Below are positions 1 to 57,499 of a DNA stretch of 57,499 nt, piece by piece. The number at the start of each line of letters is the position of its first letter. Positions within the stretch are counted from its first letter, which is position 1. A program made the translations under genes and the position numbers. The DNA is from a bacterium. Lineage in GTDB: Bacteria > Patescibacteriota > Minisyncoccia > UBA6257 > 02-FULL-45-10c. Under the pieces are notes generated by a model. The model was given only the letters and a program-made list of their open reading frames with translations, ran no database searches and was not told the origin of the DNA. Where the stretch lies: NCBI GenBank assembly GCA_030646555.1, contig JAUSKP010000010.1, positions 1 through 57,499 on the forward strand, read 5' to 3'.

Positions 1-332
1 CCGCCGGCATAACCAACCATCTCAAAAGAATACCAAGGCAAAACCTTGCCGTTTAAGTGAGTGTCTTCCCAATTCGGATCGGCATTATAAATGCTGTGCA
101 GGGCGGTAAAAATATTCTCCATTGCTTTCGGGGTCTTTAAAACATTGCCCGGGATTTTTATTTCCAAAAAAACCCACTTCATGTTTTTTATGAACATCTT
201 TTTTAAACCGGTAAGCCAAAAGTCGGAAAAAATAAAAAACAAAATAACCGGTAAAATGATCCACCAGCTAAACTTAAAAAATTCTAAAAGAATCTTGCCC
301 GCTCCGAATATAATTATCCAAGGATCTGCCAT
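1..332 (-). CDS. hypothetical membrane protein, N-terminal part only (continues past the left window edge)
   Basis: Uninterrupted minus-strand frame from ATG at 330-332 to position 1 (MADPWIIIFGAGKILLEFFKFSWWIILPVILFFIFSDFW...). Hydrophobic N-terminus. Absent from the ORF track because it has no stop in the window. Confidence 0.5.
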   Translation of the reverse strand, partial: MADPWIIIFGAGKILLEFFKFSWWIILPVILFFIFSDFWLTGLKKMFIKNMKWVFLEIKIPGNVLKTPKAMENIFTALHSIYNADPNWEDTHLNGKVLPWYSFEMVGYAG

Positions 333-397
333 ATCTAATTCAATGATCTTTATTAATGCCTACTTACATTTTACTAAAAAAACCGTAAATTTAAAAG

Positions 398-455
398 CCC
401 GTTAGAGATCCTCCGCAAGTAGCGGCGGTCATCACGACAACTTATCTCTAACGGG
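398..455. repeat. inverted-repeat element, family F (CCCGTTAGAGA ... TCTCTAACGGG)
   Basis: Arms cccgttagagat / atctctaacggg. Same arms and similar core (acgac motif) as 44716-44830. Confidence 0.7.
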
Positions 456-511
456 CTAAACCCCCTAAAAACAAAATCCGCCAACCGGCGGATAATGTTG
501 ATCTCATATAA

Positions 512-1558
512 TTAAGCTAAATTAACGGCATATCTTCCATCATCCAAACGATTAAAATGCTTTTTATTCTGCAAATTGATAAAAATGGTATTTTTCTTAA
601 ACACTCTTTCTTTCAAAACAAATTCCATCAAATCTCTCGGTTTAAGCGGTCCATTTTCTTTAAGAATTCTCATCATAACTTCTTTGGCGGTGCCGGGAGT
701 ATAGCCAAGCTCCTGAAGGCCATAAATACCGCGGCCAACCAAAACGAATTTTCCATCTTTAATAAGTTCATTATGAACAGTCTGCGCATTTATGCTTCTC
801 GCGGATTTTTTATAGTTTCCAATAGTTTTAGCTATTTCCGCGAAATGCAAAGGTTTCTTTTCTTTTTTAAGAACCATATATGCCCAGTCACGAATAGTTT
901 TAGGATTTACTTCGGACCAATCGGACAAGCCGAAATCACCGAAAGAATTGATATGAAAATCTTTTGAAAGAGAAATAAAGTTTAAAGCCACCAAATCTTT
1001 TAAATTATGCGGCTTGATCGCTTCGCTGAAAACTTTGTCTATGCTGGTATGGGAAAGAACTTTTTCTTTCTTGGTCGTCATATATTTAACAAGCCTAGAG
1101 ATAAAACTGACGATTTTTTTATCTTCGGATTCTTCCTGATACCAATAGGAATAAAACTTTTCGTTTTCACTGTGATATTTCGGGCAGCCGGCCATTTCCA
1201 ACAAGAACTTAACTTGGCTGTCAAAAATAGGAGAAGATTTTTCACCTAAAAGAAGCTGCAGATCAGCCAAGAGCAGGGCTTCGCGCCTAGCGCCTCCCAT
1301 ATTTTTAATATGCTCGTTAACGGTCTTTAAAAATTCATTCAAAATACCGCTCTTAATAAACCCTCTAAGATCTTTTATCGCCCCCGCCTCAATTTGCCTT
1401 ACTCTTTCTCTGGTAATACCGTGACCCTTGCCTAGTTCAGCCAAAGTAATAGCTTTCCCATCTCTTAATCCATAACGACGCTCAATAACCTCTCTTTGTC
1501 TTGGGGTTAAAATACTTAATATTTGATTCAACAATTTTTCAGTATTTGCTGGGGTCAT
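512..1558 (-). CDS. sigma-70 region-4 HTH protein with C-terminal HARE-HTH (RNAP delta-like) domain
   Basis: N-terminus LTPRQREVIERRYGL...TLAELG...GITRERVRQIE is a classic sigma region 4.2. C-terminal DWAYMVLKKEKKPLHFAEIAKTI resembles HARE-HTH. Confidence 0.7.
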   Translation of the reverse strand: MTPANTEKLLNQILSILTPRQREVIERRYGLRDGKAITLAELGKGHGITRERVRQIEAGAIKDLRGFIKSGILNEFLKTVNEHIKNMGGARREALLLADLQLLLGEKSSPIFDSQVKFLLEMAGCPKYHSENEKFYSYWYQEESEDKKIVSFISRLVKYMTTKKEKVLSHTSIDKVFSEAIKPHNLKDLVALNFISLSKDFHINSFGDFGLSDWSEVNPKTIRDWAYMVLKKEKKPLHFAEIAKTIGNYKKSARSINAQTVHNELIKDGKFVLVGRGIYGLQELGYTPGTAKEVMMRILKENGPLKPRDLMEFVLKERVFKKNTIFINLQNKKHFNRLDDGRYAVNLA

Positions 1559-1598
1559 ATTTTTGTAACTTCTTTAATTACAAATATAATACCATATC

Positions 1599-2486
1599 CT
1601 ATTTATTTTGTAAATAGGTCAAAAGCGGACTGGCCATAAAGATAGAAGAATAGGTTCCAATGATAGTTCCTATCAAAATTAACAATACGAAATAAGATAA
1701 AGTGGCGGCGCCGAACAAATACAAAGCCACCAAAACTATCACCAATGTAAGAGTCGTATTTATTGATCTGGCAAATGTTTGATTGATGCTAATGTTAATT
1801 ATTTCGCCAAGTTTTTTGCCTCTGTGAACAATTAAATTTTCCCTAATTCTGTCAAAGACTACAATCGTGTCGTGAACGGAAAAACCCATTATTGTTAAAA
1901 TGGCAACAATAAAATTTGTATCAATTTCTAATCCCTTCACGCTGCCCCACCACGCGTATAAACCGGCCGGGATAACGGCGTCATGGAAAAGGCAAATTAA
2001 AGTAGCTATGCCATATTTCCAAGAACTGACGGGATAAGAAACTTTTCTAAAAGCGAAAGCTATATAAAGCGAAATTCCGAAAAGCACTAAAATGAAAGCC
2101 CAAATTGCCTTGCTCTTTAATTCAGCGCCGATCACGGGACCAATGCTTTCAAAACGCAATTCTTCTACCTGGCCAAAATCTTGCTGTAATTTTGCGACAT
2201 ACTCTTGATGTTGATTTTCAGAAAGCTCATTGGTTCTGATCATCATTACTCCATTTTCGGATCCGGCTGTCACCAAAAGATTTTCTATGCCAAAATTTGT
2301 TTTAAAATAATTTTCTAATTCCGGAACAGAAACTTCCTGACCGGAAAAACGAACCTGCCATAAAGTTCCGCCGGAAAAATCAATTCCTTCTTTAAAGCCA
2401 TAAGTGAAAATGCTCACAAAAGCCAAGGCTAGCAAAACCAATGAAATACCGATAAATAAATTTTTATATTTTATTAAATCAAACAT
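1599..2486 (-). CDS. secF: protein translocase subunit SecF
   Basis: 295 aa polytopic protein with SecF-like GIDFSGGT and FSVHDTIVVFDRIREN motifs, directly downstream of secD. Confidence 0.9.
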   Translation of the reverse strand: MFDLIKYKNLFIGISLVLLALAFVSIFTYGFKEGIDFSGGTLWQVRFSGQEVSVPELENYFKTNFGIENLLVTAGSENGVMMIRTNELSENQHQEYVAKLQQDFGQVEELRFESIGPVIGAELKSKAIWAFILVLFGISLYIAFAFRKVSYPVSSWKYGIATLICLFHDAVIPAGLYAWWGSVKGLEIDTNFIVAILTIMGFSVHDTIVVFDRIRENLIVHRGKKLGEIINISINQTFARSINTTLTLVIVLVALYLFGAATLSYFVLLILIGTIIGTYSSIFMASPLLTYLQNK

Positions 2487-2500
2487 ATTATATGGTGTAA

Positions 2501-3781: not shown

Positions 3782-3789
3782 TTAATTTA

Positions 3790-3918
3790 CCCCGCACCTT
3801 TTAAGGATTGGGTTTTTAATTTTAATTATTTGTTAATTCAATAAACCAAACTCCATTTTTCACTTTTTAATATAATTTAGAATATTTTACAGACTAGTTA
3901 TCCTTAAAAGGTGCGGGG
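3790..3918. repeat. long-armed inverted-repeat element, family D2 (CCCCGCACCTTTTAAGGA arms)
   Basis: 18-bp arms ccccgcaccttttaagga / tccttaaaaggtgcgggg separated by about 93 bp. Abuts the secD start codon. Related copy at 13994-14079. Confidence 0.8.
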
Positions 3919-3983
3919 ATTAGTTTAATGATAAATTGATATTTATTATAGTAAGTTTCTAGTATTATGGCAAATTGTTTTTT

Positions 3984-4013
3984 GTCATTCCTGGCTTGAC
4001 CCGGAATCCAGAT
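3984..4013. repeat. half copy of family B repeat (GTCATTCC...GGAATCCAG)
   Basis: gtcattcctggcttgacccggaatccagatt matches the left half of 53267-53327. Confidence 0.7.
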
Positions 4014-4201
4014 TCTTCAAAAAACTCGCTCCGCCAATCATTTTCTCGGAAACAGCGTAATTTTTCCCTGCGAAAAATTCGCTTCGCTCTCAGAGTTTTG
4101 CCGCAGACGGACCGTGCCAAAACTCCTCCGAGACGTTCCTCAAAAAAGATTGATGTAGCACTCCGCTTGCTCATCTGCAAAAATTTCGGATAAAGATATT
4201 T

Positions 4202-4906
4202 TTAATAAAAAGACTCCGTAAAAATATTTTCTTCCGGAACACCACTTTCTTTAAGATCTTTCCAAATAGCATTCACAAACTGTATGGATCCGCAAAGATA
4301 ATAATTCCTCTTACCAAAAGAAACGAGGTGTTTTTTAAGCGACTCCTTATTCATTCGCGAATATTCTTGAACCAAAGGATGCTTACCTTTCTCCTGGGTT
4401 AAAAAATAAACCAATTTATCTATGCCTTTGTTTTTTGCTAAGTCATTCAATTCATCAAAAAAAGCTATGCCGGAAATTGTTTTGTTGCTGTAAAGCAATG
4501 TAAGCTTCGGCTTGGCTTTGGAATTTATTTTTTCTTTGATAACGCTAAAAAAAGGAGTGACGCCAATTCCTCCGGCTATAAATACTATGTCCTCGCAATT
4601 TTCTTCAGGATAAAACTTGCCGTATGGACCACCAAAAATTAATTTATCATTAATCGCGGTATCTATTAAAGCAGAAGAGAAAACTCCCTGCCTTTTGACG
4701 GTCAGACAAATTAATTTTTCATTTGGCGAACTTGAGATCGTATAACATTTAGAACGCCCAACTATTGATGGAACTTTAACGCTCACATATTGCCCGGCAA
4801 TAAAATTAAAACCAGCCCCATCCGCCGGCTTAAAAAATAGCGAAGCTATATTTTCCGCTTCGTCTTTTTTGCTTACCAATACAAATTCTCTATTTTTATT
4901 TTCCAT
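4202..4906 (-). CDS. FAD/NAD(P)-binding oxidoreductase (ferredoxin-reductase type)
   Basis: 234 aa. FR-type FAD-binding beta-barrel (GQYVSVKV, YTISS) followed by an NAD-binding GGIGVTPF motif. Overlaps the iscU stop. Confidence 0.75.
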   Translation of the reverse strand: MENKNREFVLVSKKDEAENIASLFFKPADGAGFNFIAGQYVSVKVPSIVGRSKCYTISSSPNEKLICLTVKRQGVFSSALIDTAINDKLIFGGPYGKFYPEENCEDIVFIAGGIGVTPFFSVIKEKINSKAKPKLTLLYSNKTISGIAFFDELNDLAKNKGIDKLVYFLTQEKGKHPLVQEYSRMNKESLKKHLVSFGKRNYYLCGSIQFVNAIWKDLKESGVPEENIFTESFY

Positions 4907-5336
4907 TTTTATTTAAATAATCTTCAACCGCTTCCCGCAGAGCTTCGTGCCCCAAAACCGAGCAATGAAATTTTCTGTCCGGCAAACCGCCAAGTCTTTC
5001 TACTATCTGCTGAGGTTTCAGTGTCTGCGCTGTTTTCAGATCCATTCCGCCCTTTTCAGTTGCCATCACGGACATCATTGAAGCCGAAGCAATGGCTGAG
5101 GCGCAGCCAAAAGTCCGCCATTTGCATTCCTTGATGCGTTCAGTCTTTTTATCAACTTTGATCCATGCGATCATAACGTCCCCGCATTCCGGACTGCCCA
5201 CAGTGCCCACTCCATCCGCTTTATAGCCGGTTTCGTCCAATAAAATATTTCTTGGATGAAAAAAATGATCTTTTATGGTTTCGCTATAGATCCAACCCGC
5301 TCCATCGGGAGAACACGATTTTTTTTGCTGTTTCAT
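4896..5336 (-). CDS. iscU: Fe-S cluster assembly scaffold, NifU/IscU N-terminal type
   Basis: Three conserved cysteines (GSPECGD, FGCASAIAS, FHCSVLG). Translationally coupled to the cysteine desulfurase gene. Confidence 0.9.
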   Translation of the reverse strand: MKQQKKSCSPDGAGWIYSETIKDHFFHPRNILLDETGYKADGVGTVGSPECGDVMIAWIKVDKKTERIKECKWRTFGCASAIASASMMSVMATEKGGMDLKTAQTLKPQQIVERLGGLPDRKFHCSVLGHEALREAVEDYLNKNGK

Positions 5337-6619
5337 TTTATCGAAGATATGCCTCTTATTTTTTTAACAGACTCTACTAAAACTTTCATAGTGTAGTCTA
5401 TGTCTCCTTTTTTAGTATATCGTCCAAGCGTAAAACGAACGCTGCAGTGAGCAAGTTCTAAAGGCAATCCTATGCTTAATAATACATAAGATGGGCTAAG
5501 ATCTAAGGATGAACAGGCTGATCCCGTAGAACAATAAATTCCGTACCTATCTAATAGAAGGAGCAGGGATTCCCCCTCAACTCCTTTTATAGATACATTT
5601 ATATTATTTGGCAGTCGCTGTTTTATGTCTCCGTTTACCAATACCCCATCAATTTCTTTTTGAATCCGTCTCAAAAAATAGTCTCGTAATTTTATTAATC
5701 GCTTGCTTTCTGAAACTCTTTTCTTTTCAGAAATTGAAAGAGCCTCGGAAAAACCTACAATCCCCGCCACATTTTCCGTTCCCGATCTTAATCCCCTTTC
5801 CTGTCCGCCGCCAAATATAATTGGCTCAATCTTAGCTTGTAGTGAGCCCGTCGAACTATATTTTTTATTTAAATAGAGGCACCCGATCCCTTTTGGCCCG
5901 TATATTTTTGAAGAGCTCATCGTGAGAGCATCTGCCCCTAATTCCTTAGCTTTAATTGGCAATGCGCTAGCGGCCTGGCAGGCATCCGTGTGAAATATTG
6001 GGAATAATGAATTGTTATTAAATCTGTCATTGTGAGGCAACCGAAGCAATCTATTTGTTTTCTCAGATTGCCGCGTCGCAGACTCCTCGCAATGACGGAC
6101 AGTTTTAAATTCCTGAATAATTTTAGCGATTTCCTTTATTGGTTGAATAGTTCCAATTTCGTTATTGGCATACATTATAGAAACCAAAATCGTATCCCGC
6201 CTTAAACTCAAACTCAACTTTTCTAAAGAAACCAAACCCTTTTTATCTACATCTAAATAAGTTATTTCAAAGCCTTCTTTTTCCAGTTTCTTGCAGGCAT
6301 CCAATATCGCTTTATGTTCAATACCCGAAACAATTACGTGCTTTCCTTTTTCTTTATAGGCGCGGGCAATGCCGAACATAGCCAAATTGTCGGATTCGGT
6401 TCCCCCGCTGGTAAATATAATTTCTTCCGGCTCCGCGCCAATATGTTTAGCGATATTTTTTCTTGCCGTTTCAATCGCATTCTTGCTTTCTCTGCCAAGA
6501 GCATGCAAAGAAGACGGGTTGCCATACCTTTCTTTAAAATAAGGCAACATTGCCTTTAATACCCTAGGATCAACGGGCGTCGTTGAAGCGTTATCTAAAT
6601 AGACTTGTTTAGATTTCAT
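5333..6619 (-). CDS. iscS: cysteine desulfurase (NifS/IscS class) carrying an in-frame repeat insertion
   Basis: YLDNASTTP, FTSGGTESDN, HTDACQA, SSSKIYGPKG and GSACSS motifs. About 30 extra residues are encoded by repeat 6026-6096. Confidence 0.9.
   Translation of the reverse strand: MKSKQVYLDNASTTPVDPRVLKAMLPYFKERYGNPSSLHALGRESKNAIETARKNIAKHIGAEPEEIIFTSGGTESDNLAMFGIARAYKEKGKHVIVSGIEHKAILDACKKLEKEGFEITYLDVDKKGLVSLEKLSLSLRRDTILVSIMYANNEIGTIQPIKEIAKIIQEFKTVRHCEESATRQSEKTNRLLRLPHNDRFNNNSLFPIFHTDACQAASALPIKAKELGADALTMSSSKIYGPKGIGCLYLNKKYSSTGSLQAKIEPIIFGGGQERGLRSGTENVAGIVGFSEALSISEKKRVSESKRLIKLRDYFLRRIQKEIDGVLVNGDIKQRLPNNINVSIKGVEGESLLLLLDRYGIYCSTGSACSSLDLSPSYVLLSIGLPLELAHCSVRFTLGRYTKKGDIDYTMKVLVESVKKIRGISSIK
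6026..6096. repeat. family A palindromic element (GTCATTG[CT]GAGG ... CCTCGCAATGAC) inside the iscS coding frame
   Basis: Same termini and core (ccgaagcaatct...agattgccgcgtcgcagactcctcgcaatgac) as the intergenic copies at 10499, 11326 and 11976. Confidence 0.85.
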
Positions 6620-6627
6620 AAAAAATA

Positions 6628-7467
6628 TTACTTTATTCTTCCATAACTATCGCTAAGCCTGATCACATCTTCAACTTCCGAAGTAGATATCTCAAAAAGC
6701 TTGACCGCATCTTTGCCGGCGGAAAATCTATGGACCGTTTTCGGAAGTATCACAATGCTTTTTCCGGCTTCCAATATCGTTTCTTTGCTGCCAATTCCTA
6801 CCTTCAATTTCCCTTCTAAAACATAAATAGTCTCATGTTTCATATTATGATATTGCTCGCTCAATTTCTGCCACGGATCTATAGAGATTATTTTGCCTGT
6901 ATACAATTTATTGTGCGCTACCCACTCTTCTTTTCCCCAAGGCTTTTTAACCACCTTGATCTTCCCCATCATTCCTTTTATTTTCTTGTCCGTATTCATC
7001 CGCTTTATTATCTCCGATTCGTTTTTAACGAGATTTGAAGAAGACTGGATCTTTTTGCCCAGCTTATCTATCATTTTTATTCCATATTTTTGGCACAGGC
7101 CTTTTTCCGGAATATTGCCAAGATTTCTATCTCCTCCCTTTGCAAATATATCCGGCATTATTTTTTCTATGGATCTGCAAACGCTCCCGTCCCGGTCTAT
7201 GCTTTCAAAAACTTCATCAACATATTTTAATGAGCCCACGATCTTCTTCCTTTCGTCGCAGCTCATAAAAACATACCCTTTTTTCATCTTCGCCTGATCA
7301 TCGTTGTTTACTATAACAACTAATTTGTCGCCCAATTTTTTCGCAAGTTTAAGATATTCTATATGTCCAGTATGAATGGGGTCAAAATATCCCGATGCCG
7401 CGACAATGATTTCTTTATTAGTTTTTTTATTCACCCCATTAGAATTTTTTTTTGTATTCATAACCAT
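6628..7467 (-). CDS. bifunctional-looking cytidylyl/adenylyltransferase (RfaE-II-like) fused to a cupin (type II phosphomannose-isomerase-like) domain
   Basis: SGYFDPIHTGHIEYL nucleotidyltransferase motif at the N-terminus. C-terminal cupin region KPWGKEEW...HETIYVLEGKL. Confidence 0.7.
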   Translation of the reverse strand: MVMNTKKNSNGVNKKTNKEIIVAASGYFDPIHTGHIEYLKLAKKLGDKLVVIVNNDDQAKMKKGYVFMSCDERKKIVGSLKYVDEVFESIDRDGSVCRSIEKIMPDIFAKGGDRNLGNIPEKGLCQKYGIKMIDKLGKKIQSSSNLVKNESEIIKRMNTDKKIKGMMGKIKVVKKPWGKEEWVAHNKLYTGKIISIDPWQKLSEQYHNMKHETIYVLEGKLKVGIGSKETILEAGKSIVILPKTVHRFSAGKDAVKLFEISTSEVEDVIRLSDSYGRIK

Positions 7468-7619
7468 TCATTACATTTACCCACGCAATCATTAGAAATA
7501 ATATTTAAGTAAATAACGCTTCTAATTCTAACGGGGTAAATTTTTTAAAAAATATATTGAATTAATAATATCACAGACAAACTAAAGAAAATATCAATGC
7601 TTCTGCTATAATAAATAAA

Positions 7620-7844
7620 ATGAATGGCCATCCCAATAATCCCCTGCAAGATAAAACGCTTGAATCAATATTAAAGTTTCTGGTAGAACAATATGGCTGG
7701 GTGGAGCTCGGCTCCCGCATTAAAATAAAATGCTTCGTAAACAACCCAAGCATTAAATCAAGTCTCGCTTTTTTACGCAAAACTCCCTGGGCAAGGGAAA
7801 AAGTAGAATCTTTATATCTAAACACAAAACAAAATGGATCTTAA
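7620..7844 (+). CDS. DUF2132 (VF530-like) small protein
   Basis: 74 aa. [56 protein letters not shown] matches the family pattern as recalled. TATAAT lies 11 nt before the ATG. Confidence 0.65.
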
Positions 7845-8841
7845 AAAATTTCAACAATCATTTGATGGCGAACCGAAATATCGCTTAAACCAAGCTCAAA
7901 AAAGTCTTTTCCAAGACTTAATTAAGAATTGGCAGGAAGCGATCGGACTCCCATTAGCGCTGAGAGAAAAAATAAACAAAGAATTCCCGATAGGTATACC
8001 GGCGGAGGCTTTTACTTCCAAAGATAAAAATACTGTAAAAACTCTTATAACTTTGGAGGATGGCCTAAAAGTTGAAACCGTTCTGATGCGACACGCCGAC
8101 AAAAGAAACACTATCTGTGTTTCTTCTCAGATTGGCTGTCCTATGAATTGCTCTTTCTGCGCCACCGGAAAAATGGGATTTAAAAGGAATCTTGAAACCT
8201 GGGAAATTCTTGAACAGATATTATTTTTCGCCCGCTATCTTAAATTAACGTCCTCGGAGGACGTTAATATAACCAATGTTGTTTTTATGGGTATGGGAGA
8301 GCCGTTTCTGAACTATGAAAATGTGATGGACGCCATAAAAATATTAAATGATAAAAATGGATTTAATTTGGGAGCCAGGCATATTTCTATTTCTACCTGC
8401 GGGGTAACTGAAGGAATTGAAAAATTGGCAGATGAGAATATTCAAATAAATTTAGCCATCTCTCTTCACGCGCCGGACAACAAGACCCGTTCAAAAATAA
8501 TGCCGGCAAATAAAAATTATCCTATTGAGAAAATTTTAAAGGCAGTAGATGAGTATATTAAGAAAACTAACCGCCAGGTGATGTTTGAATATATAATGCT
8601 GAAAAATGTGAATGATTCCGAAGAGCACGCTAGATCCCTAGCAAAATTATTAAAAAAACCGCTTTATATGGTCAACTTGATCGCATACAATCCAACAGGA
8701 ATATATGATCCATCCCCCGCTTCACAAATTAAAAAATTCAAAGAAATTCTGGAACACGAAGGAATTACAGTTACTCAAAGACACGAATTCGGACAAGACA
8801 TCGGAGGCGCTTGCGGACAACTGGCGACTTCGCCTCGTTAA
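7834..8841 (+). CDS. rlmN: 23S rRNA/tRNA adenine-C2 methyltransferase RlmN (radical SAM)
   Basis: [11 protein letters not shown] radical-SAM cluster motif, GMGEPFLNY, and C-terminal GGACGQL. Confidence 0.9.
8245..8267. repeat. perfect 23-bp palindrome inside the rlmN frame
   Basis: ttaacgtcctc-g-gaggacgttaa, encoding LTSSEDVN. Confidence 0.8.
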
Positions 8842-8860
8842 ATAATTTTTAAAAAATAAA

Positions 8861-8893
8861 ATCCCTGCGCTCTTACATAGAGAGCGCAGGGAT
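8861..8893. terminator. bidirectional rho-independent terminator (rlmN / small-gene unit 1)
   Basis: atccctgcgctc...gagcgcagggat hairpin flanked by A-run and T-run. Confidence 0.75.
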
Positions 8894-8943
8894 TGTGTGC
8901 CGCCACGACAAAGTCGAGCGAGCCTCGCCAAGGGCGGGAGGAC

Positions 8944-9150
8944 TTATTTGGGAGGAACCGGCTTATACACGATCACGAGCGTCAAGAATATGTCCGGACA
9001 GGCGGTTCCGGGAACTATGGTTATTTCCTGACTAACCGAAACGATCTCGGCGCCCTTATTTTTTTCATGCCATTTGTCTAATTCCCTATTGATATCTCTG
9101 ATCACAGCTTCTTCCCTAACGCTACAGGCATGCAACATTATAATTTTCAT
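8944..9150 (-). CDS. small soluble protein (68 aa), second gene of leader-cassette unit 1
   Basis: ATG preceded by aaggaaggg. Ends ...KPVPPK, sharing a 23-bp 3' block with the 9471-9845 gene. Confidence 0.6.
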   Translation of the reverse strand: MKIIMLHACSVREEAVIRDINRELDKWHEKNKGAEIVSVSQEITIVPGTACPDIFLTLVIVYKPVPPK

Positions 9151-9152
9151 AT

Positions 9153-9323
9153 TTACCCTTCCTTCTTTTTATTGATTTTTTTTGCCGTTTCCGAATCATC
9201 GCCCTTCATTGAGTAAAGAAAAAAGAAAAAAAGTGCCCATCCCGGATGGCCGCCTATGAAGGCCAAAAATGCCGCCCACCCCGGATGACCGCAGAACAAA
9301 CACACGAATGCTATAACAAGCAT
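9153..9323 (-). CDS. 56-aa membrane peptide (below the ORF-track size cut-off), first gene of unit 1
   Basis: Hand translation gives MLVIAFVCLFCGHPGWAAFLAFIGGHPGWALFFFFLYSMKGDDSETAKKINKKKEG. GGAGG lies 8 nt upstream. The stop is 2 nt before the next ATG. Confidence 0.5.
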   Translation of the reverse strand: MLVIAFVCLFCGHPGWAAFLAFIGGHPGWALFFFFLYSMKGDDSETAKKINKKKEG

Positions 9324-9410
9324 GTAATTATTCCTCCTTGCGTTTTACGTTCGCAAAAACGAATTAATGTTCTATTTAACATTAAACTATAGAACGATAT
9401 ATTAGTCAAA
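9324..9410 (-). promoter_or_regulatory. conserved promoter/operator/5' leader cassette, copy 1 of 3
   Basis: mRNA sense: TTGACT-17 nt-TTTAAT, then a palindrome GTTCTAT..ATAGAAC over the -10, then leader AATTCGTTTTTGCGAACGTAAAACGCAAGGAGG. Confidence 0.65.
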
Positions 9411-9420
9411 TAAAAAGAAA

Positions 9421-9446
9421 AGCCCCCCGACTGGTGTCGGGGGGCT
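9421..9446 (-). terminator. rho-independent terminator of unit 2
   Basis: AGCCCCCCGACACCAGTCGGGGGGCT followed by a T-run in minus sense. Confidence 0.8.
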
Positions 9447-9470
9447 TTTGCGCGTAAGCGCGTTGAGGAC

Positions 9471-9845
9471 TTATTTGGGAGGAACCGACAGATAATAGCC
9501 ATCCAGGACCGCAAACTTCTTAGGCGGATTATTGTCTAAGAGATAGGCGACTAAGTGGCCGCCCGGACCCCGGATAACCACTGCATACTTCATTGAGCCC
9601 GCGTTGTCGGGATTAACGAGCACCGAACTCATGGTCTCATAGATAGCATTGCGTTCAAAATCTGTGTCTACGAGTTTAAGTTTGCCGACGCCATCTCTAT
9701 ATACCATTGCTGAGCCTATCAGGATACATGCAATGGCCAAAATAAAATACGGTACCGGAGCACAATCGTCACCTTTTTCTATGGACACCCCAGCGAAAAT
9801 GGCGGCGAGAAGCCCCATCACTAACAGAATTATTGCAAGCGTCAT
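9471..9845 (-). CDS. 124-aa protein with two N-terminal TM helices and a soluble C-terminal domain (unit 2)
   Basis: ATG at 9843-9845 directly after leader cassette copy 2. Ends ...SVPPK. Confidence 0.65.
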   Translation of the reverse strand: MTLAIILLVMGLLAAIFAGVSIEKGDDCAPVPYFILAIACILIGSAMVYRDGVGKLKLVDTDFERNAIYETMSSVLVNPDNAGSMKYAVVIRGPGGHLVAYLLDNNPPKKFAVLDGYYLSVPPK

Positions 9846-9932
9846 ATTTCCTTCCCCCTTTGCGTTTTACGTTCGCAAAAACGAATTAACGATCTGTTTA
9901 GTATTAAACAGTAGAATGATAAGTTAGTCAAA
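9846..9932 (-). promoter_or_regulatory. conserved promoter/operator/5' leader cassette, copy 2 of 3
   Basis: Near-identical to 10229-10316. TTGACT, -10 TTTAAT overlapped by CTGTTTA-ATAC-TAAACAG, and the same GCGAACGTAAAACGCAAA leader. Confidence 0.65.
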
Positions 9933-9945
9933 CTTTTTAAAAAAC

Positions 9946-9974
9946 AAAGCCCCAAATGTGATGTCTGGGGCTTT
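9946..9974 (-). terminator. rho-independent terminator of unit 3
   Basis: AAAGCCCCAGACATCACATTTGGGGCTTT plus a T-run in minus sense. Confidence 0.75.
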
Positions 9975-9979
9975 TTGAT

Positions 9980-10228: not shown

Positions 10229-10316
10229 ATTTCCTTCCTCCTTTTGCGTTTTACGTTCGCAAAAACGAATTAACGATCTGTTTAGTATTAAACAGTAGAA
10301 CGATATGTTAGTCAAT
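10229..10316 (-). promoter_or_regulatory. conserved promoter/operator/5' leader cassette, copy 3 of 3
   Basis: TTGACTAACATATCGTTCTACTGTTTAATACTAAACAGATCGTTAATTCGTTTTTGCGAACGTAAAACGCAAAAGGAGG in mRNA sense. Confidence 0.65.
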
Positions 10317-10352
10317 AGCAATATTTTTTAAGAAATAAAACGGGCTGGATTC

Positions 10353-10374: not shown

Positions 10375-10388
10375 ATCTATCCGTTTTG

Positions 10389-10423: not shown

Positions 10424-10438
10424 AGACACAATTATAAA

Positions 10439-10479: not shown

Positions 10480-10498
10480 GGAATATAATTATTTTATC

Positions 10499-47854: not shown

Positions 47855-47914
47855 AAATCATAAAACCGGCAACAAAATGCCGGTTTTATGATTTGTGCGC
47901 GGTAGATGGGATTT
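47855..47914. repeat. direct repeat copy A: duplicated tRNA-Asp 3' end plus its terminator hairpin
   Basis: aaatcataaaaccggcaa(caa)aatgccggttttatgatttgtgcgcggtagatgggattt is repeated at 48025-48081, where it is part of the intact tRNA-Asp locus. Confidence 0.85.
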
Positions 47915-48064
47915 CCCTACGGTAAATTTACTGACGTAAATTTCCTCCGGGCCGGCCCTCACAGCGCTCGCCTCGCCTTCAGCGAACTCGCGCTTTGCTC
48001 CGGGCTTCAAATCCCCCTACGTATAAATCATAAAACCGGCAAAATGCCGGTTTTATGATTTGTG

Positions 48065-48139
48065 CGCGGTAGATGGGATTTGAACCCACGGTCTCCTCCG
48101 TGACAGGGAGGCGCATTAGGCCAGCTATGCTACTACCGC
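48065..48139 (-). tRNA. tRNA-Asp (anticodon GTC)
   Basis: GCGGTAG/CTACCGC acceptor, anticodon arm CCTCC-CTGTCAC-GGAGG, T-arm GTGGG-TTCAAAT-CCCAT. A 14-bp-stem terminator follows. Confidence 0.9.
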
Positions 48140-48838: not shown

Positions 48839-48900
48839 GTCATTCCGCACTTGATGCGGAATCTAGGTTTTCTGGATTCCGGCTCGTTGGCCGGAATGAC
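48839..48900. repeat. family B element
   Basis: gtcattccgcacttgatgcggaatctaggttttctggattccggctcgttggccggaatgac. Confidence 0.9.
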
Positions 48901-50430: not shown

Positions 50431-50501
50431 GTCATTCCGTACTTGATACGGAATCCAGAATCATGGATCCCCGGGTCTCGCTTCGTTCGCCCGAGGATGA
50501 C
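50431..50501. repeat. family B element
   Basis: gtcattccgtacttgatacggaatccagaatcatggatccccgggtctcgcttcgttcgcccgaggatgac. Confidence 0.85.
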
Positions 50502-50539
50502 AGATGCCCTTTGTTTTTCTAGTGGCTAGTCGCTAATTA

Positions 50540-50854: not shown

Positions 50855-50946
50855 GTCATTCCGCACTTGATGCGGAATCTAGATCTTCTGGATTCCCGCT
50901 TTCCCTCCTTCGCCGAGGCTTCGGACGGGCAAAGCGCGGGAATGAC
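50855..50946. repeat. family B element with a nested GC-rich insert
   Basis: gtcattccgcacttgatgcggaatctagatcttctggattcccgctt[tccctccttcgccgaggcttcggacgggcaaa]gcgcgggaatgac. Confidence 0.85.
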
Positions 50947-51117: not shown

Positions 51118-53247
51118 CTATCTTAACATAGCAATAAACTCCTTTTCGTTTATCGTCCTTATTCCTAATCGCTCCGCTTTCTCGGCTTTAGAACCAGGCT
51201 CAGCGCCAACCACTACATAGGAAGTATTTTTGGAAACAGATTCGCTCACGTCCCCGCCCAATTCTCTGACTTTATCTTTGGCGTCTCCACGCTCCAATGC
51301 TTTCAACGTTCCCGTGAAAACAAAAGAGAGCCCCTTCAACTTTAAACTTTTTCCGCTGGAGGCGGATCCACCTTTGGCGGAAACTTTTATTCTCACGCCG
51401 ACTTCTTCCATTTTCTGCAAAAGCTTCAAATTCCTGCTTTCACGGAACCAATCATATACGCTTTGCGCCACCTTCGGGCCGACATCCGGAAGTTCTTGTA
51501 GATCTTCCATTGTCATTTTTTCAAAGGCCCTAATAACATCCTTCGGCTTTGAAATTTGAAACCCCGCACCAGAAACTTTGTTTCGGTGCGGGACTAGTCC
51601 AGCACCGAGCCTTGCTCTGGTGCTGGGTTGTAAATTCTGCGCTAAGAGCGCAGCGGTTTCCTCTCCAATATGCAATATTCCCAAACTATAAATAAATTTG
51701 CTTAAAGAAATTTCTTTTTTTAAATTAACTTCCCAGACTATATTTTCAGCTGATTTCTTGCCAAATCTCTCAAGGGTCAAAATATCCCCTTCTTTTAATG
51801 TAAAAATATCGGCCGCGTCATTAATGAGCCCCTCGTCTATAAAACGGTCAATTATTTTAGGTCCAAGCCCCTCAAGATTAAATGCTCCGCGCGAAACAAA
51901 ATGATAAAGTTTTTCTTTATGGACTCCGCCGCAATTTTTATTACCGCATTTATAAAAAACTCCATCTTTAACCACTTTTCCGCCGTCAACAGGGCAAAGC
52001 TTGGGCATCTCAAAATCCTTAGTATGTTTAGGTCGCAGATCCTTTAAAACTTTTAAAATTTTAGGAATGACATCGCCCGCCCTGCTCACAATGACCGTGT
52101 CTCCTATCCTCGCTCCCAATCGCTGAATCTCGTCAAAATTATGAAGCGTGGCATGAGTAATTGTAATGCCCGCAACCTGGACCGGTCTTAGAGTTGCCAC
52201 GGGAGTTAAAACTCCGGTCCGTCCAACTTGAATTTTTATGTCTTCAATGACCGTCGTGGCTTCTTTTGGAGAAAATTTAAAAGCGATTCCGGCACGAGGC
52301 GCTTTGCCTATGACGCCGGCTCTTTCGTATTCTTTATTATCGTTTACAAACACCACGATCCCGTCAATTTCGTATGGAAGATTATCTCGTTTTTTGCCGG
52401 TCCAATAATCTTGAAGCCTAAAAATATCTTCCAAACTATCCACTCTTTTATTATGAGGGTTTATCTTAAAGCCCCAAGACTTCAAAAGCTCGTGCTCTTC
52501 TTCATGTTTTGTTATGCCCCATTTTTCCAGATCTTTAGACGGCATAATGATGTCATATTCAAAAGAATCCAGTTTTCTGCCGGCGGTAATTTTTGGATCC
52601 AGCTGACGGACAGAACCGGCCGCGATATTGCGAGGATTGGCATACGGCTTTAAACCTTTCATTTCCTGCTCCTTATTCATTCTTTCAAATTCTTTTTTAT
52701 TCACGAAAACCTCTCCCCTCACCACTATTTTTTTAGGGATTTTTATCTTTGCCTTGCTATCGTCCAATACCAAGGGCACCGCCTCCACGGTTTTAATATT
52801 TTGAGTGATGTCTTCCCCTACTAAACCATTGCCGCGGGTAGACGCCTGTTTTAAAATTTTATTTTCATAAAGAAGTTCAACGGCAAATCCGTCAAGTTTT
52901 AATTCGCAATAGAAATCTGAATTAACTTTCCGTCCCAAAAAATTTTCAAGCTTCTCCAGCCAATCATTCATATCTTCCGCGGAAAAAGCATCATTGAGAG
53001 ATATCATCGGCTGTTCATGTCCGACTTTTTTAAATTCTTTAAGAGGTTCCCCGCCCACTCTCTGTGTTGGCGAATCAGAAGTAATAAATTCCGGATACTG
53101 ATTCTCTAAGTCAAAAAGCTCCTTTTTTAAGGAGTCTAGCGCTTCGTCGGAAATGAGCGACTTATCCAAAACGTGATAAGCATAACGATATTTTTCTATA
53201 ACCTTTTTCAGTTCTATTATTCTTTTTTTAGCCGCCTGTTTATCCAT
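51118..53247 (-). CDS. ligA: NAD-dependent DNA ligase LigA with an in-frame repeat insertion
   Basis: Adenylation motif CELKLDG, OB fold, Zn finger (CPVDGG...CGNKNC), HhH and BRCT domains. Confidence 0.95.
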   Translation of the reverse strand: MDKQAAKKRIIELKKVIEKYRYAYHVLDKSLISDEALDSLKKELFDLENQYPEFITSDSPTQRVGGEPLKEFKKVGHEQPMISLNDAFSAEDMNDWLEKLENFLGRKVNSDFYCELKLDGFAVELLYENKILKQASTRGNGLVGEDITQNIKTVEAVPLVLDDSKAKIKIPKKIVVRGEVFVNKKEFERMNKEQEMKGLKPYANPRNIAAGSVRQLDPKITAGRKLDSFEYDIIMPSKDLEKWGITKHEEEHELLKSWGFKINPHNKRVDSLEDIFRLQDYWTGKKRDNLPYEIDGIVVFVNDNKEYERAGVIGKAPRAGIAFKFSPKEATTVIEDIKIQVGRTGVLTPVATLRPVQVAGITITHATLHNFDEIQRLGARIGDTVIVSRAGDVIPKILKVLKDLRPKHTKDFEMPKLCPVDGGKVVKDGVFYKCGNKNCGGVHKEKLYHFVSRGAFNLEGLGPKIIDRFIDEGLINDAADIFTLKEGDILTLERFGKKSAENIVWEVNLKKEISLSKFIYSLGILHIGEETAALLAQNLQPSTRARLGAGLVPHRNKVSGAGFQISKPKDVIRAFEKMTMEDLQELPDVGPKVAQSVYDWFRESRNLKLLQKMEEVGVRIKVSAKGGSASSGKSLKLKGLSFVFTGTLKALERGDAKDKVRELGGDVSESVSKNTSYVVVGAEPGSKAEKAERLGIRTINEKEFIAMLR
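51562..51627. repeat. family G double-hairpin element in-frame inside ligA
   Basis: ccccgcaccagaaactttgtttcggtgcgggactagtccagcaccgagccttgctctggtgctggg encodes ...PSTRARLGAGLVPHRNKVSGAG... in the HhH region. Confidence 0.8.
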
Positions 53248-53266: not shown

Positions 53267-53327
53267 GTCATTCCGGGCTTGACCCGGAATCCAGAAATTC
53301 TGGATCCCGCATCAAGTGCGGGATGAC
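53267..53327. repeat. family B element
   Basis: gtcattccgggcttgacccggaatccagaaattctggatcccgcatcaagtgcgggatgac. Confidence 0.9.
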
Positions 53328-53766: not shown

Positions 53767-53826
53767 GTCATTCCGCACTCGATGCGGAATCTAGGCTCTC
53801 TGGATTCCCGCCTTCGCGGGAATGAC
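53767..53826. repeat. family B element
   Basis: gtcattccgcactcgatgcggaatctaggctctctggattcccgccttcgcgggaatgac. Confidence 0.9.
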
Positions 53827-53838
53827 GAATGTTTTAGT

Positions 53839-54507
53839 TTAATATCGCAGATCATTTCTCACGCTCACAGTATTCTGCAAATTAGTAAAAGGCATAGTAG
53901 AAAGCTGAGTGTTTCTCGTACTCACCCTTAAAAGAATGGTTATTTTGGGATAATCCGTATCGCTTTCAAAACAAACCGAGTTTTCACACTGCATCAAAAA
54001 ATCGGCAAATTCCACCCGCAAATTCTCGCTGATTATTCCGCTGAAAAGATTGGAATCGGCGCAATTGGCAAAAACAGCCGGACCGACATTCCATTCCAAA
54101 GATTTACCCGCTCTATTCCAGCGATAGGTAATATAATCATTGCCGTACTTAAATTTTAAACATTTAAAATCACTATCCACTCCGTTATCCGCTAAAATTC
54201 TTTCAGAAATAAAGCTCTGGCCTAAACCCTTCCTGATCATCCTGGACATTTGATCTAGGGTTAGAGAGGCGTCTGAATTGGCCGTTATTAAAGCCACCGC
54301 AAGCCGGTTGGAGCGAAGAGAGCTTATAAATATTCCTGAAGCCACGGCTACAATAACAGAAAAAACCGATATAGCTATTAAAAGCTCTATCATCGTAAAT
54401 CCCCGCACCAGAGCATAGCTCGGTGCGGGACTAGTCCAGTACCGAAACGAAGTTTCTGGTACTGGGCCCCCTTTATCACCTATTTTAAATTTATTTTTCT
54501 GTATCAT
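53839..54507 (-). CDS. type IV pilin-like protein with prepilin N-terminal cleavage/methylation motif
   Basis: RGFTMIELLIAISVFSVIVA matches G|FT.IELL. The leader peptide is unusually long because it contains repeat 54401-54467. Confidence 0.75.
   Translation of the reverse strand: MIQKNKFKIGDKGGPVPETSFRYWTSPAPSYALVRGFTMIELLIAISVFSVIVAVASGIFISSLRSNRLAVALITANSDASLTLDQMSRMIRKGLGQSFISERILADNGVDSDFKCLKFKYGNDYITYRWNRAGKSLEWNVGPAVFANCADSNLFSGIISENLRVEFADFLMQCENSVCFESDTDYPKITILLRVSTRNTQLSTMPFTNLQNTVSVRNDLRY
54401..54467. repeat. family G double-hairpin element inside the prepilin leader-peptide codons
   Basis: ccccgcaccagagcatagctcggtgcgggactagtccagtaccgaaacgaagtttctggtactggg. Confidence 0.8.
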
Positions 54508-55186: not shown

Positions 55187-55447
55187 TTATCTACAAACTT
55201 GAGCACCCGCCAAAATTTTATTTAAATAATTCCTGCCCCAACCTGTTTTTAAATACTTTTCTCGTTTCATAGCCATTAATTTATTTTTATGACCTTCAAA
55301 ATATACAAGTTCTAACGGACGTCTATTTTTAGTCGAAATTACCAATCCCTTACCGTGTTCCAATACTCTTCTTTTTATATTATCAGTATAACCGACATAA
55401 AACCCATTGTCTTTTTTACATAATAAAACGTAAGTATAATAAAACAT
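55187..55447 (-). CDS. small GIY-YIG nuclease-family protein (copy 3)
   Basis: MFYYTYVLLCKKDNGFYVGYTDNIKRRVLEH...NRRPLELVYFE. Start trimmed to the ATG at 55445-55447. Confidence 0.8.
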   Translation of the reverse strand: MFYYTYVLLCKKDNGFYVGYTDNIKRRVLEHGKGLVISTKNRRPLELVYFEGHKNKLMAMKREKYLKTGWGRNYLNKILAGAQVCR

Positions 55448-55462
55448 AAAATTTAGGCGGGT
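55205..55462 (-). mobile_element. candidate TIR-bounded GIY-YIG element, second copy with different but again complementary ends
   Basis: ACCCGCCAAAATTT (55205-55218) versus AAATTTAGGCGGGT (55449-55462), 13/14 complementary. Same positions relative to the ORF as in 43336-43625. Confidence 0.55.
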
Positions 55463-56353: not shown

Positions 56354-56356
56354 AAA

Positions 56357-56380
56357 AGAGGGGCTTATTTCATCCCCTCT
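56357..56380. terminator. bidirectional terminator hairpin
   Basis: AGAGGGGcttatttcatCCCCTCT flanked by A-run and T-run. Confidence 0.8.
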
Positions 56381-56402
56381 TTTTGCTTCTAAAAAACCTA
56401 GA

Positions 56403-56621
56403 TCACTTTCCGGAATCTCCTCCGTCTGATGTCTTGGTTTTATTACCATCGCTATCAGTTTTCCACCAGCTCCCGTCACCATGCTGGGTTGTGTGAGGAT
56501 TATTATTGCCCTCATAACCATGGAATGTTCTCGTGCTGCCCTCATCGGACTTGGAAACACGAAAACCCACACTGTCTCCGTCTTGATCCTTCCCCGTCGC
56601 GCGTTCGGTACTCTCGCCCAT
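56403..56621 (-). CDS. 72-aa highly hydrophilic Gly/Asp/Ser/Thr/Lys-rich protein
   Basis: GGAGG lies 8 nt before the ATG. 38 nt downstream of the GNAT gene. No hydrophobic core. Local G+C is higher than the surroundings. Confidence 0.55.
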   Translation of the reverse strand: MGESTERATGKDQDGDSVGFRVSKSDEGSTRTFHGYEGNNNPHTTQHGDGSWWKTDSDGNKTKTSDGGDSGK

Positions 56622-56659
56622 TATTATTCCTCCGTCCTTTTTTTATTTTTCTTCGGCAA

Positions 56660-57226
56660 CTAAATATTTCGCTTAAGTCGCCCAAGAAATATTTCGATTC
56701 GCGATAGATCTCGTTCTTTGTATATCGCGTATCTTAGCAGATCATATCGAATTCCATTGAATAATCTATGTCCGCCAAAACAGCCCTCTTGAGAAAATCC
56801 AGCTCCGCGAATACAGGAAAGTGATTGAGTATTATACTCATATACTTCCATATAAATCTTAAATATAGGAAACTCACTGAATAAGTGATGTAAAAATAAT
56901 GCTATGGCTTCAGCGCCATATCCACTAGTACGGTATGATTCAGAAAGAAAGATGGTAATAAAAGCATATCCGTCTACTTTTTTATAACCATAAGAATATA
57001 TTGTGCCTATGGATTTTCCATCTTTTTTTCTTATGATCATCATTTGGATATGTCTATCTCTTTTAAAATCCTCTTTCAATTCTTCTCTGAAATCATCCAA
57101 ATTTGTTTCATCTCTGCGAACGGAACAATTTTTTCTAAAATCGTTATCATTGCGCCATTGGAACAACAATGGAATATCTTGTTCACTGCAACAACGAAGA
57201 TAAACATGCCTTCCTTGTAAACCCAT
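56660..57226 (-). CDS. GNAT-family N-acetyltransferase (RimJ/RimL-like)
   Basis: 188 aa. Typical acetyl-CoA binding region (RTSGYGAEAIALFLHHLF) and RimJ-like N-terminus (LRCCSEQDIPLLFQWRND). Confidence 0.85.
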   Translation of the reverse strand: MGLQGRHVYLRCCSEQDIPLLFQWRNDNDFRKNCSVRRDETNLDDFREELKEDFKRDRHIQMMIIRKKDGKSIGTIYSYGYKKVDGYAFITIFLSESYRTSGYGAEAIALFLHHLFSEFPIFKIYMEVYEYNTQSLSCIRGAGFSQEGCFGGHRLFNGIRYDLLRYAIYKERDLSRIEIFLGRLKRNI

Positions 57227-57405
57227 ACAGTTGACCTCCTTTTTTATTTTTCAAAGATCCGTTCGTAGTTTTTAACTACGAAACACCATAAAAATAACGA
57301 TTTTTTGATGTTTTGTCAAATAAAAATGGGTTAGATTCAAGTCCTTGGCGCATTTTTTACCATTTGACAATTTTGGGAAAGCGTGCTATCATAAAAACAT
57401 AGTAT

Positions 57406-57499
57406 CCGCCTTCGCATCCTGCCGTCGTTTCCTCCTTCGCCAATGCTATGGCGGACGAAGAAAACTATGGCGGGCGAGGAAAGCTATGGCGGACGAAGT
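57406..57499. repeat. GC-rich family H repeats (CCTTCGC / CTATGGCGG[AG]CGA[AG]GAAA tandem units) running to the window edge
   Basis: ccgccttcgc...cctccttcgccaatgctatggcggacgaagaaaactatggcgggcgaggaaagctatggcggacgaagt. Confidence 0.75.

Follow-up and report, generated by a model that had tools for sequence, protein, structure and literature searches.

Co-resident families of small hairpin repeats in a patescibacterial genome: a probable lineage-specific burst with stand-alone GIY-YIG nucleases as candidate drivers

We analyzed a 57,499-nucleotide stretch of DNA (GenBank assembly GCA_030646555.1, contig JAUSKP010000010.1, positions 1 to 57,499; hereafter, the window) from a bacterium of the Patescibacteriota lineage UBA6257; 02-FULL-45-10c, in which short repeats with inverted ends occupy spacers and genes alike. 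The window probably records a burst, specific to this lineage, of small mobile hairpins from several co-resident families, driven by small GIY-YIG nucleases. The families belong to at least two mechanistically different classes and not to one. Presence or absence at the same sites in congeners, target-site duplications, nesting, and the pairing of each nuclease clade with one type of repeat end all link the repeats to mobility. From the sequences, we infer that the GIY-YIG nuclease would be the mobilizing enzyme. The genome under study (G000), whose source run is a groundwater metagenome, is a 707-kb metagenome-assembled genome (MAG) of 68 contigs with a GC content of 40.7%, 89% completeness, and 1.2% contamination; the window is its contig C24. 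By its DnaK relatives, it falls within Patescibacteria among lineages of the Paceibacteria type. For comparison, we used five congeners (G001 to G005), of which G004 is 99.4% complete in three contigs, and an order-wide sample of 201 genomes.

About ten repeat families were recognized in G000. Whole-genome self-BLAST gave 5,692 repeat pairs, with at least one other copy for 8.1% of bases and at least two for 4.45%, and repeats made up 23 to 32% of the intergenic DNA and 1.5 to 4% of the DNA in crude open reading frames (ORFs). A search for paired ends found 38 elements of family A, about 87 of B, 28 of C, 16 of D, 16 of G, and 7 of F. Family G here denotes the element with CCC(C)-type terminal inverted repeats (TIRs) that the initial annotation had called D2, its own letter G having been given to a double hairpin. 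The palindrome P occurred 16 times at up to 3 mismatches to its 20-mer and 7 times in an exact-arm search. The total of 199 paired elements corresponds to 281 per Mb, spread over 34 of the 68 contigs; among the 39 contigs that reach 5 kb, 29 carry elements. The families thus extend well beyond the window. For the double hairpin, BLAST coverage suggested about five copies, an over-strict pattern having found one only.

All family motifs named in the initial annotation were recovered where it had placed them in the window. Its copy numbers held for B (eight), for D and D2 together (two D elements and two with G-type TIRs), for E and F (two each), and for H (at least six), and needed adjustment elsewhere. 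The six A copies are four dimers and two solo halves; five short C elements rather than four were counted, one nested in another, beside the two that bear ORFs; P has five exact or near-exact copies and one variant; and the double hairpin, put at four copies or more, has two in the window plus two related copies adjoining tRNA genes. A multicopy repeat was present in 25 of the 51 spacers of at least 40 nt, or about 30 when low-copy families are included, so the earlier wording "almost every spacer" was too strong.

The repeats were gained recently and in this lineage. For 95 G000 elements, both 400-nt flanks mapped side by side in G004, and 78 of these sites were empty there (A, 16/20; B, 33/44; C, 17/18; D, 4/5; G, 6/6; F, 2/2), and local alignments showed twelve window elements likewise without a counterpart at congener sites. 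Self-comparison of G004 gave only 336 repeat pairs, and sequence present in 10 or more copies made up 0.01% of G004 versus 1.37% of G000. Complete A elements numbered 23 in G000, 19 in G003, 8 in G005, 1 in G002, and 0 in G001 and G004, and were almost absent elsewhere in the family and order. In L023, a closer relative (dnaK 87% identical), both spacers around dnaK held different elements from those of G000. Logan contigs of the source run and related runs contained breaks caused by repeats and copies from other loci and revealed no presence/absence polymorphism within the population, although such contigs drop rare variants and are therefore uninformative on this point.

Repeats of this kind could also arise in assembly or binning through collapsed copies, chimeric joins, or contaminant contigs; G000 is in 68 contigs, and the Logan contigs of its source run break inside repeats and only there. 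However, collinearity of the window with G004 and G002 extends over almost all of it, with gene order kept across the repeats, indicating that the contig is not chimeric, and this candidate explanation was rejected. Unique sequence was evenly covered at about 25 to 30x, the elements are dispersed over half of the contigs with only 11 of 136 contig ends lying within repeats, and the same families occur in the independent assemblies G003, G005, and L023. An artefactual origin is thus extremely improbable.

Nesting gave a second record of insertion. P, H, a B dimer, or other hairpins had inserted into at least 8 of the 38 A elements, three times in one of them, and P was a clean 20-nt insertion without duplication in copies of A, B, and E. 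Both nesting cases pointed out earlier in the window proved exact when set against P-free copies. The A dimer at 10499 to 10578 has P at 10547 to 10566 and is 98% identical up to the insertion to 11326 to 11376, part of the 60-bp P-free dimer at 11326 to 11385. The B dimer at 21330 to 21408, absent from G001, G003, G004, and G005, has P at 21350 to 21369; its P-free reference is at 48839 to 48900. The proposal of successive insertions is therefore supported by this clean nesting as well as by the empty sites and by targets that are single copy in G004.

Several insertions lie in frame within genes. Compared with the five congeners, the tRNA-guanine transglycosylase (TGT) gene contains a GC-rich H-type insert at 24175 to 24245 that adds about 14 residues. 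An H-type insert of 60 nt at 41797 to 41856 adds 20 residues to PheT and is absent from G004 and G002, the latter having another insert nearby. In ligA, a double hairpin (CCCCGCACC / CCAGCACC) at 51559 to 51627 adds 18 residues relative to G004. Inserts are likewise present in a cysteine desulfurase gene (5333 to 6619, minus strand), where an A dimer at 6026 to 6096 leaves the reading frame open and splits the Aminotran_5 match into two stretches, and in a pilin-like gene (53839 to 54507), which contains a double hairpin at 54398 to 54466.

Class 1 comprises families A and B. Parsing of all A copies showed each to be a head-to-head pair of (C/T)GTC-tagged hairpins, and B shares this arrangement, its stems reading ATTCC..GGAAT. 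In B monomers the stem is 8 bp long and opens with ATTCC, the loop spans 4 to 7 nt, and C/T-GTC precedes the hairpin. This fits the CGTC-tagged repetitive extragenic palindromes (CGTC-REPs), defined by a terminal CGTC/TGTC tag, a stem of 8 to 9 bp starting with AT, a loop of 4 to 5 nt, and a short tail, and head-to-head dimers predominate in both families, as the paired-end counts show. The published pattern of the Ssn-related motif (SRM) matched 32 times in G000 versus 0 to 2 times in ten Markov shuffles, a fit limited to part of B, with family A and many B variants outside the strict pattern. Three G000 hairpins, one of them at 53800 to 53827 in the window, equal the Neisseria NTS consensus exactly. 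Judged by these sequence features, B is, and A probably is, of the known CGTC-REP/dRS3-NTS/SRM kind. SRM-type hairpins (GTCATTSC-N6-24-GSAATC) numbered 153 in G000, the highest count among the 201 order genomes (reversed-pattern control, 0), followed by 113, 87, 62, and 45 in the next-ranked genomes; most had 0 to 2, and G004 had 3. The initial annotation had called the load unexpected for a reduced genome. The rank of G000 bears this out within the order, but heavy repeat loads had been described before in the reduced genomes of Rickettsia, Wolbachia, and Neisseria (PMC3733652, PMC11893778).

Class 2 comprises families D, F, and G, whose TIRs of 12 to 20 bp start with CCC(C). Gene-less copies are 48 to 131 bp long and are flanked by target duplications of 4 to 6 bp (TTGA, TTTA, TAAA, TCAA, and TGAA). 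Identical flanking 4-mers (TTGA, TTTA, TAAA, or TCAA) bordered 15 of the 16 G copies. The 16 D copies had ATGAA on both sides, or in one case ATGGA on both sides, the flanks thus covarying, and every copy ended exactly on a gene start codon in constant orientation. At five sites the target was present once in G004 (C37:17165, TTTA; C45:10235, TAAA; C62:4308, TTTA; C53:8989, ATTCAT; and C62:3004, TTCAT), and a sixth is in the window, where a 115-bp F element at 44716 to 44830, on the start codon of the gene at 43639 to 44715 (minus strand), duplicates ATTCAT and the empty G004 site has a single ATCCAT. This indicates that these are true target-site duplications. In L023, a 28-nt CCCC hairpin in the loop of an A element duplicates CACG relative to the A consensus. 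The combination of TIRs and target duplication that marks miniature inverted-repeat transposable elements (MITEs) was found for D, F, and G and not for A, B, C, or P; no target duplication was seen for these four. For A and B, the empty-site alignments were too diverged in their spacers to fix exact insertion points or to decide on a duplication. Family C was often inserted in the loop of another hairpin, while P, H, and the double hairpin were found in other repeats and, with the reading frame kept, in genes. Clustering of the repeats, presence/absence mapping, and a search for target duplications, the checks that had been proposed for the load, thus gave genome-wide families, sites empty in a congener, and duplications for three families. 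Confinement to the window and an artefactual assembly, the two outcomes named beforehand as fatal to mobile-repeat expansion, were both contradicted.

Stand-alone GIY-YIG genes accompany both classes. G000 has ten such ORFs of 78 to 101 amino acids (aa) above the Pfam cutoff and an eleventh, truncated to 44 aa, below it. In class 1, the gene-carrying form consists of a hairpin, a GIY-YIG gene of 95 to 101 aa, and an inverted hairpin. Inverted B ends bracket C54:26459 (95 aa), and C7:4206 (101 aa) lies between GTCATTCCGAG-type hairpins (GAG-type GTC hairpins) with one A hairpin in addition; both genes are outside the window, and the Pfam GIY-YIG E value is 1.9e-18. C ends enclose the window ORF at 43325 to 43591, a variant near 55244, and, at C61:3979, a 44-aa copy with an internal deletion. 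C54:21281 (element C54:21258-21550) lies between D ends, and C20:14228 (element C20:14205-14500) lies between G ends. C, D, and G each have exactly one ORF-bearing copy of 290 to 296 bp, compared with 15 to 27 short copies. The D and G copies (293 to 296 bp) have an 85- to 86-aa GIY-YIG nuclease as their sole gene, and the C paralogue is 86 to 88 aa long. Protein clades track end type in G000 for B, C, D, and G. Two further ORFs of 78 to 79 aa, one of them at 36413 to 36649 in the window, follow tRNA genes and H-type units.

The B-type protein was modeled with a GIY-YIG fold at a pLDDT of 93. Its nearest solved structures, BH0048 (a stand-alone UPF0213 protein), Slx1, and the N-terminal domain of UvrC, came from a fold search, a sequence search of the PDB having returned spurious WD40 matches only. 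More than 4,300 homologues with 65 to 75% identity were found in several phyla. A search of NCBIfam with the nucleases gave no specific family and only subthreshold matches to intron endonucleases.

We looked for other enzymes that might move the repeats. PF01797, the Y1 transposase family of the REP-associated (RAYT) systems, had no match in G000 at an E value of ≤0.01, whereas control genomes did match, and a REPIN-RAYT system was rejected. Multicopy sequences resembling insertion sequences (ISs) were not found in G000, nor were transposase domains in the nonsyntenic window ORFs that were scanned. The same-end partners of the short elements (C20:14205-14500, C54:21258-21550, and window 43336-43625) encode a GIY-YIG protein and no recognized transposase. 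The GIY-YIG ORFs thus remain, as first noted, the only plausible element-encoded enzyme.

Two arrangements at tRNA genes were observed beside these cassettes. At C61:14962-15174 in G000, a GIY-YIG ORF lies between a truncated 5' copy of tRNA-Pro and the intact tRNA-Pro gene. G192 (L136, C8) has a tandem duplication (99.5% identity) of a unit made up of the tRNA-Glu 5' half and the ORF, and the breakpoint falls in the anticodon loop.

Cassettes of the class 2 type are widespread in the order. Homologues of the G/D-type protein were found in 127 of the 201 genomes, and among 30 loci that we inspected, most were bracketed by CCCC-type repeats as elements of 281 to 310 bp, usually with TTGA or TGAA duplications. 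At eight of the 30, the right flank read TTGAC(A/T)-N16-18 followed by a -10-like hexamer, indicating that the element sits in a -35 box that the duplication restores. Among the others were insertions on start codons (ATGAAA) and at the ends of tRNA genes. G194 has three copies with 97 to 99% identity, each 3' of a different tRNA gene and with 4- to 5-bp duplications in two of the three; the identity ends exactly at the TIRs, which enclose the nuclease gene only. At C20:14205-14704 in G000, the ORF-bearing G element lies in the -35 box of a promoter (TTGACA-N16-TATAAT), and the gene downstream has a D MITE on its start codon, so two insertion classes occupy the signals of one gene.

A mechanism can be proposed for these elements. 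The small GIY-YIG nucleases would act in trans on hairpin or TIR ends and so start copying or movement, probably on single-stranded or cruciform DNA as for Ssn, and host repair would complete the insertion. The only copies to survive selection would be those in spacers, on start codons or -35 boxes that duplication restores, and in tolerant protein loops. A bolder form of this proposal is that the units of about 295 bp with CCC(C) TIRs would be a class of autonomous transposon new to the literature, with a GIY-YIG protein of about 85 aa as their sole product, 4-bp duplications, a preference for TTGA(CA) -35 boxes, (A)TGAA(A) start codons, and tRNA gene ends, whose signals they would restore, and the 50- to 130-bp MITEs as their descendants, while the GTC-tagged REP/SRM hairpins would be the nonautonomous partners of a sister branch of nucleases. 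We advance this form tentatively and put its chances a little short of even.

Several observations weigh against a nuclease-driven burst. For families A, E, F, H, and P and for the double hairpin, the 89%-complete G000 holds no copy with an ORF. G004 has four GIY-YIG matches, one of them a B-type cassette, yet almost no repeats, indicating that the nuclease alone does not cause expansion. We know of no strand-transfer activity for a bare GIY-YIG domain of about 85 aa. At the D element at 17385, G003 and G004 have about 20 extra leader bases, indicating that this locus is not a simple insertion. Finally, the arms of the 38 A elements are 90 to 100% conserved around AT-rich spacers of 2 to 17 nt that are nearly always unique (for example, 11326 to 11385 versus 11976 to 12047). 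Copying followed by decay does not predict this combination, which hints at selection or gene conversion on the arms.

The first two of these points, and the incompleteness of G000, would also fit repeats moved by an enzyme encoded outside the cassettes, on unassembled DNA, a phage or plasmid, or in the host of this episymbiont, with the GIY-YIG ORFs as passengers or as homing endonucleases riding in hairpins. The GIY-YIG enzymes known to us are homing or repair nucleases and not transposases, and the duplicated tRNA halves at the tRNA-linked cassettes are reminiscent of homing or integration. An outside enzyme does not account for the covariation of nuclease clade and end type, seen in G000 and across the 30 order loci, or for the identity limits of the G194 copies, and the searches for Y1/RAYT genes and for multicopy IS-like sequences in G000 speak against it as well. 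We consider this origin distinctly unlikely.

The conserved A arms with unique spacers are also what selection on binding sites would produce, and the hairpins might therefore be sites useful to the host, maintained by selection and spread by recombination. They could be targets of an Ssn-type nuclease that polices or modulates incoming single-stranded DNA (ssDNA), CPR (candidate phyla radiation) bacteria being dependent on DNA uptake, or they could act as terminators or mRNA stabilizers. SsnA and NTS modulate transformation in Neisseria (PMC11893778), pilin-like genes are present in the window, and some H units are terminator-like, as at 30770 to 30805, where a T run comes after a GC hairpin. 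However, the T run is missing from most A and B copies, and placement relative to the orientation of flanking genes was at background with no enrichment at convergent ends, so a general terminator role was set aside. A congener does without nearly all of the repeats, some copies lie within essential genes, and target duplications and nesting signal insertion. An Rfam scan returned ten tRNAs only, with no Rfam family matching any repeat family. Such a host function is therefore unlikely as a general explanation, and movement by the nucleases remains the reading that we prefer.

The closest known system is that of the Ssn-family GIY-YIG proteins, which cut ssDNA next to such hairpins, and the NTS-ssnA-NTS layout has been remarked on as insertion-sequence-like (Chenal et al. 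2025, Nat Commun, PMC11893778). The likeness in sequence lies in the single-domain GIY-YIG gene of about 95 aa flanked by inverted hairpins in G000 and in the family B hairpins that fit the SRM pattern, are enriched over shuffles, and in three cases match NTS. In contrast, G000 has at least four co-resident clades of nuclease paralogues, each with its own end type, and the C, D/F, and G ends are not GTC tagged, two of them making target duplications; neither multiple clade-specific ends nor target duplications have been described for Ssn. The CGTC-REPs include dRS3 of Neisseria and RPE-4 and RPE-6 of Rickettsia, no dedicated transposase has been found for them, and the phyla listed do not include Patescibacteria (Di Nocera et al. 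2013, PMC3733652). G000 shares with them the (C/T)GTC tag, a stem starting with AT, head-to-head dimers, in-gene copies, several families per genome, and the lack of a RAYT. Family A differs, its hairpins having a 5-bp outer stem and 13 to 20 nt between the arms, whereas the four defined families have stems of 8 to 9 bp and loops of 4 to 5 nt.

Other small repeats resemble parts of the G000 load. Rickettsia palindromic elements, on which Ogata and colleagues are said to have reported in 2000, reportedly lie in frame in essential genes of a small genome and are tolerated as extra loops; the inserts in TGT, PheT, and LigA are of this type, but they belong to another phylum, come from several unrelated families, and have empty alleles in congeners. 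Correia-type MITEs of Neisseria have TIRs, short target duplications, lengths of 50 to 130 bp, and a longer same-end copy encoding a DDE-type transposase, and they lie near promoters and gene starts. Class 2 shares all of these features except that its longer copy, of no more than about 295 bp, has a gene for a GIY-YIG protein instead of a DDE-type transposase. REP/REPIN-RAYT systems combine inverted pairs of hairpins with a single-copy, hairpin-flanked gene for a small ssDNA nuclease, the IS200/IS605-like Y1 enzyme. G000 likewise has hairpins in inverted pairs and a single-copy hairpin-flanked gene for a small nuclease, but its tag is GTC rather than GTAG and the Y1 gene was not found. To our knowledge, IS200/IS605-type elements make no target duplications, unlike class 2. 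Our literature search found no paper on prokaryotic elements with TIRs and target duplications that encode only a GIY-YIG nuclease. The A and B part of the load is thus of a known kind, and the families with TIRs, target duplications, and nuclease-only cassettes of about 295 bp, moved as we suppose, would be a variant that we did not find published.

The usual picture of ultrasmall CPR genomes is one of streamlining, with little mobile DNA. About a quarter to a third of the intergenic DNA of G000 consists of young repeats and its congener has almost none, indicating that streamlining can reverse quickly. Hairpin families side by side with matching nuclease paralogues offer a natural experiment on what moves REP-like repeats, a question that the 2013 work on CGTC-REPs left open and to which the 2025 work on Ssn returned. 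Should the nuclease prove to be the mover, the elements would be the smallest self-encoding transposons known and would represent a new enzymatic route to transposition, and the pairs of compact enzyme and specific DNA site might serve as tools. The repeats also matter for the annotation of CPR genomes, since they break up MAG assemblies, put extra loops into essential proteins, and occupy promoters and start codons.

The remaining elements of the window are given here by family. The other A dimer lies in the grpE/dnaK spacer (11976 to 12047); it is absent from G004, and the L023 spacer holds a different element. Solo A halves lie at 10391 to 10423, adjoining a P palindrome at 10354 to 10373, and on the minus strand at 24715 to 24744, adjoining tRNA-Glu and absent from G002, G004, and G005. 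Further B dimers were found at 23327 to 23390, 53267 to 53327, and 53767 to 53827, the right arm of the last (minus strand) being the NTS-like hairpin. A variant B dimer at 50431 to 50502 is absent from G004, the dimer at 50855 to 50946 has a 32-nt H unit (about 50900 to 50931) in the loop of its second hairpin, and a solo B-type GTC-tagged hairpin is on the plus strand at 3984 to 4012.

In class 2, the second F element (58 bp; TIR, CCCGTTAGAG) is at 398 to 455. A G MITE of 129 bp at 3790 to 3918, flanked by TTTA/ATTA, has the TIR CCCCGCACCTTTT, as in the ORF-bearing element at C20:14205-14500, and a variant G MITE of 82 bp (CCCGCCACC..GGTGCGGG) at 13996 to 14077 is flanked by ATAAAT/ATAAAC. 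The D MITE at 17385 to 17512 (plus strand, 128 bp, flanks ATGAAT/ATGAAA) ends on the start codon of the gene from 17513 and is absent from G003, G004, and G005. That at 27699 to 27828 (minus strand, 130 bp, flanks TTTCAT/ATTCAT) is on the start codon of the gene at 26037 to 27707 (minus strand) and is absent from G002, G004, and G005.

Short C elements lie at 14126 to 14184 (59 bp, with a P-like palindrome after it at about 14190 to 14215), at 22868 to 22924 (with outer hairpin flanks; absent from G001 to G004, the G005 site being unrelated sequence), at 29715 to 29811 (with a second C nested at 29741 to 29798, the identical composite occurring at C51:3152), and at 37778 to 37837 (absent from G004 and G002). 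The ORF-bearing C element at 43336 to 43625 (minus strand, 290 bp, 88-aa ORF) corresponds to a gap of 2 nt in G004. The C variant at 55205 to 55462 (minus strand) has ACCCGCCAAAAT arms and an 86-aa GIY-YIG ORF whose product is 56% identical to the 43325-43591 protein. Family E, with CGAAT-rich arms, has an element at 15213 to 15314 that is absent from G004 and G002 and a partial copy at 29130 to 29176. P palindromes also lie at 36877 to 36896 and 39177 to 39196. GC-rich H-type units are at 30736 to 30818 (a hairpin, CCCGCCATAGC..GGCGGG, then a T run), at 31602 to 31673, and, as an array of CCTTCGC / CTATGGCGG units, at the contig end (57394 to 57498). Those at 36338 to 36649 (plus strand), directly 3' of tRNA-Trp, lead into the 78-aa GIY-YIG ORF, and G004 has an unrelated gene at this site.

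A 6.8-kb stretch at 3787 to 10602 is absent from G004 and G002 and partly present in G005. G and B elements border it on the left and P and A elements on the right, and it encodes an FAD/NAD oxidoreductase, NifU, cysteine desulfurase, a cytidylyltransferase/mannose-6-P isomerase, a radical SAM protein, and three small paralogous ORFs. By analogy, it is a repeat-flanked variable island that may be likened to the NIME-flanked units of Neisseria. Within 9325 to 10315, three 85-nt direct repeats (79 to 100% identity) stand in front of small ORFs (9471 to 9845 and 9980 to 10321); these are a tandem duplication of promoter and gene and not a palindromic element.

Two other ORFs differ from the congeners. 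Flanked by conserved genes, the 102-aa ORF at 22137 to 22445 has no Pfam match; G004 lacks it, and G003 has other genes in its place. The 717-aa metallophosphoesterase-like ORF at 33921 to 36074 occupies the most GC-rich part of the window (48.5%) and is too diverged from G004 for alignment at the DNA level; a pattern search of the species genomes gave no relatives.

Some repeats adjoin tRNA genes. A 53-nt repeat at 17119 to 17171 and 30103 to 30155 (89% identity) adjoins tRNA-Lys and tRNA-Val, with a duplicated piece of the tRNA-Lys 3' end in front at the former; neither ARAGORN nor Rfam called it as a tRNA. A perfect 42-nt direct repeat at 47873 to 47914 and 48040 to 48081 comprises a terminator hairpin and the 3' end of tRNA-Asp, and the 125 nt between its copies are GC-rich and H-like. 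This repeat may be a pseudo-tRNA or an integration scar at tRNA-Asp.

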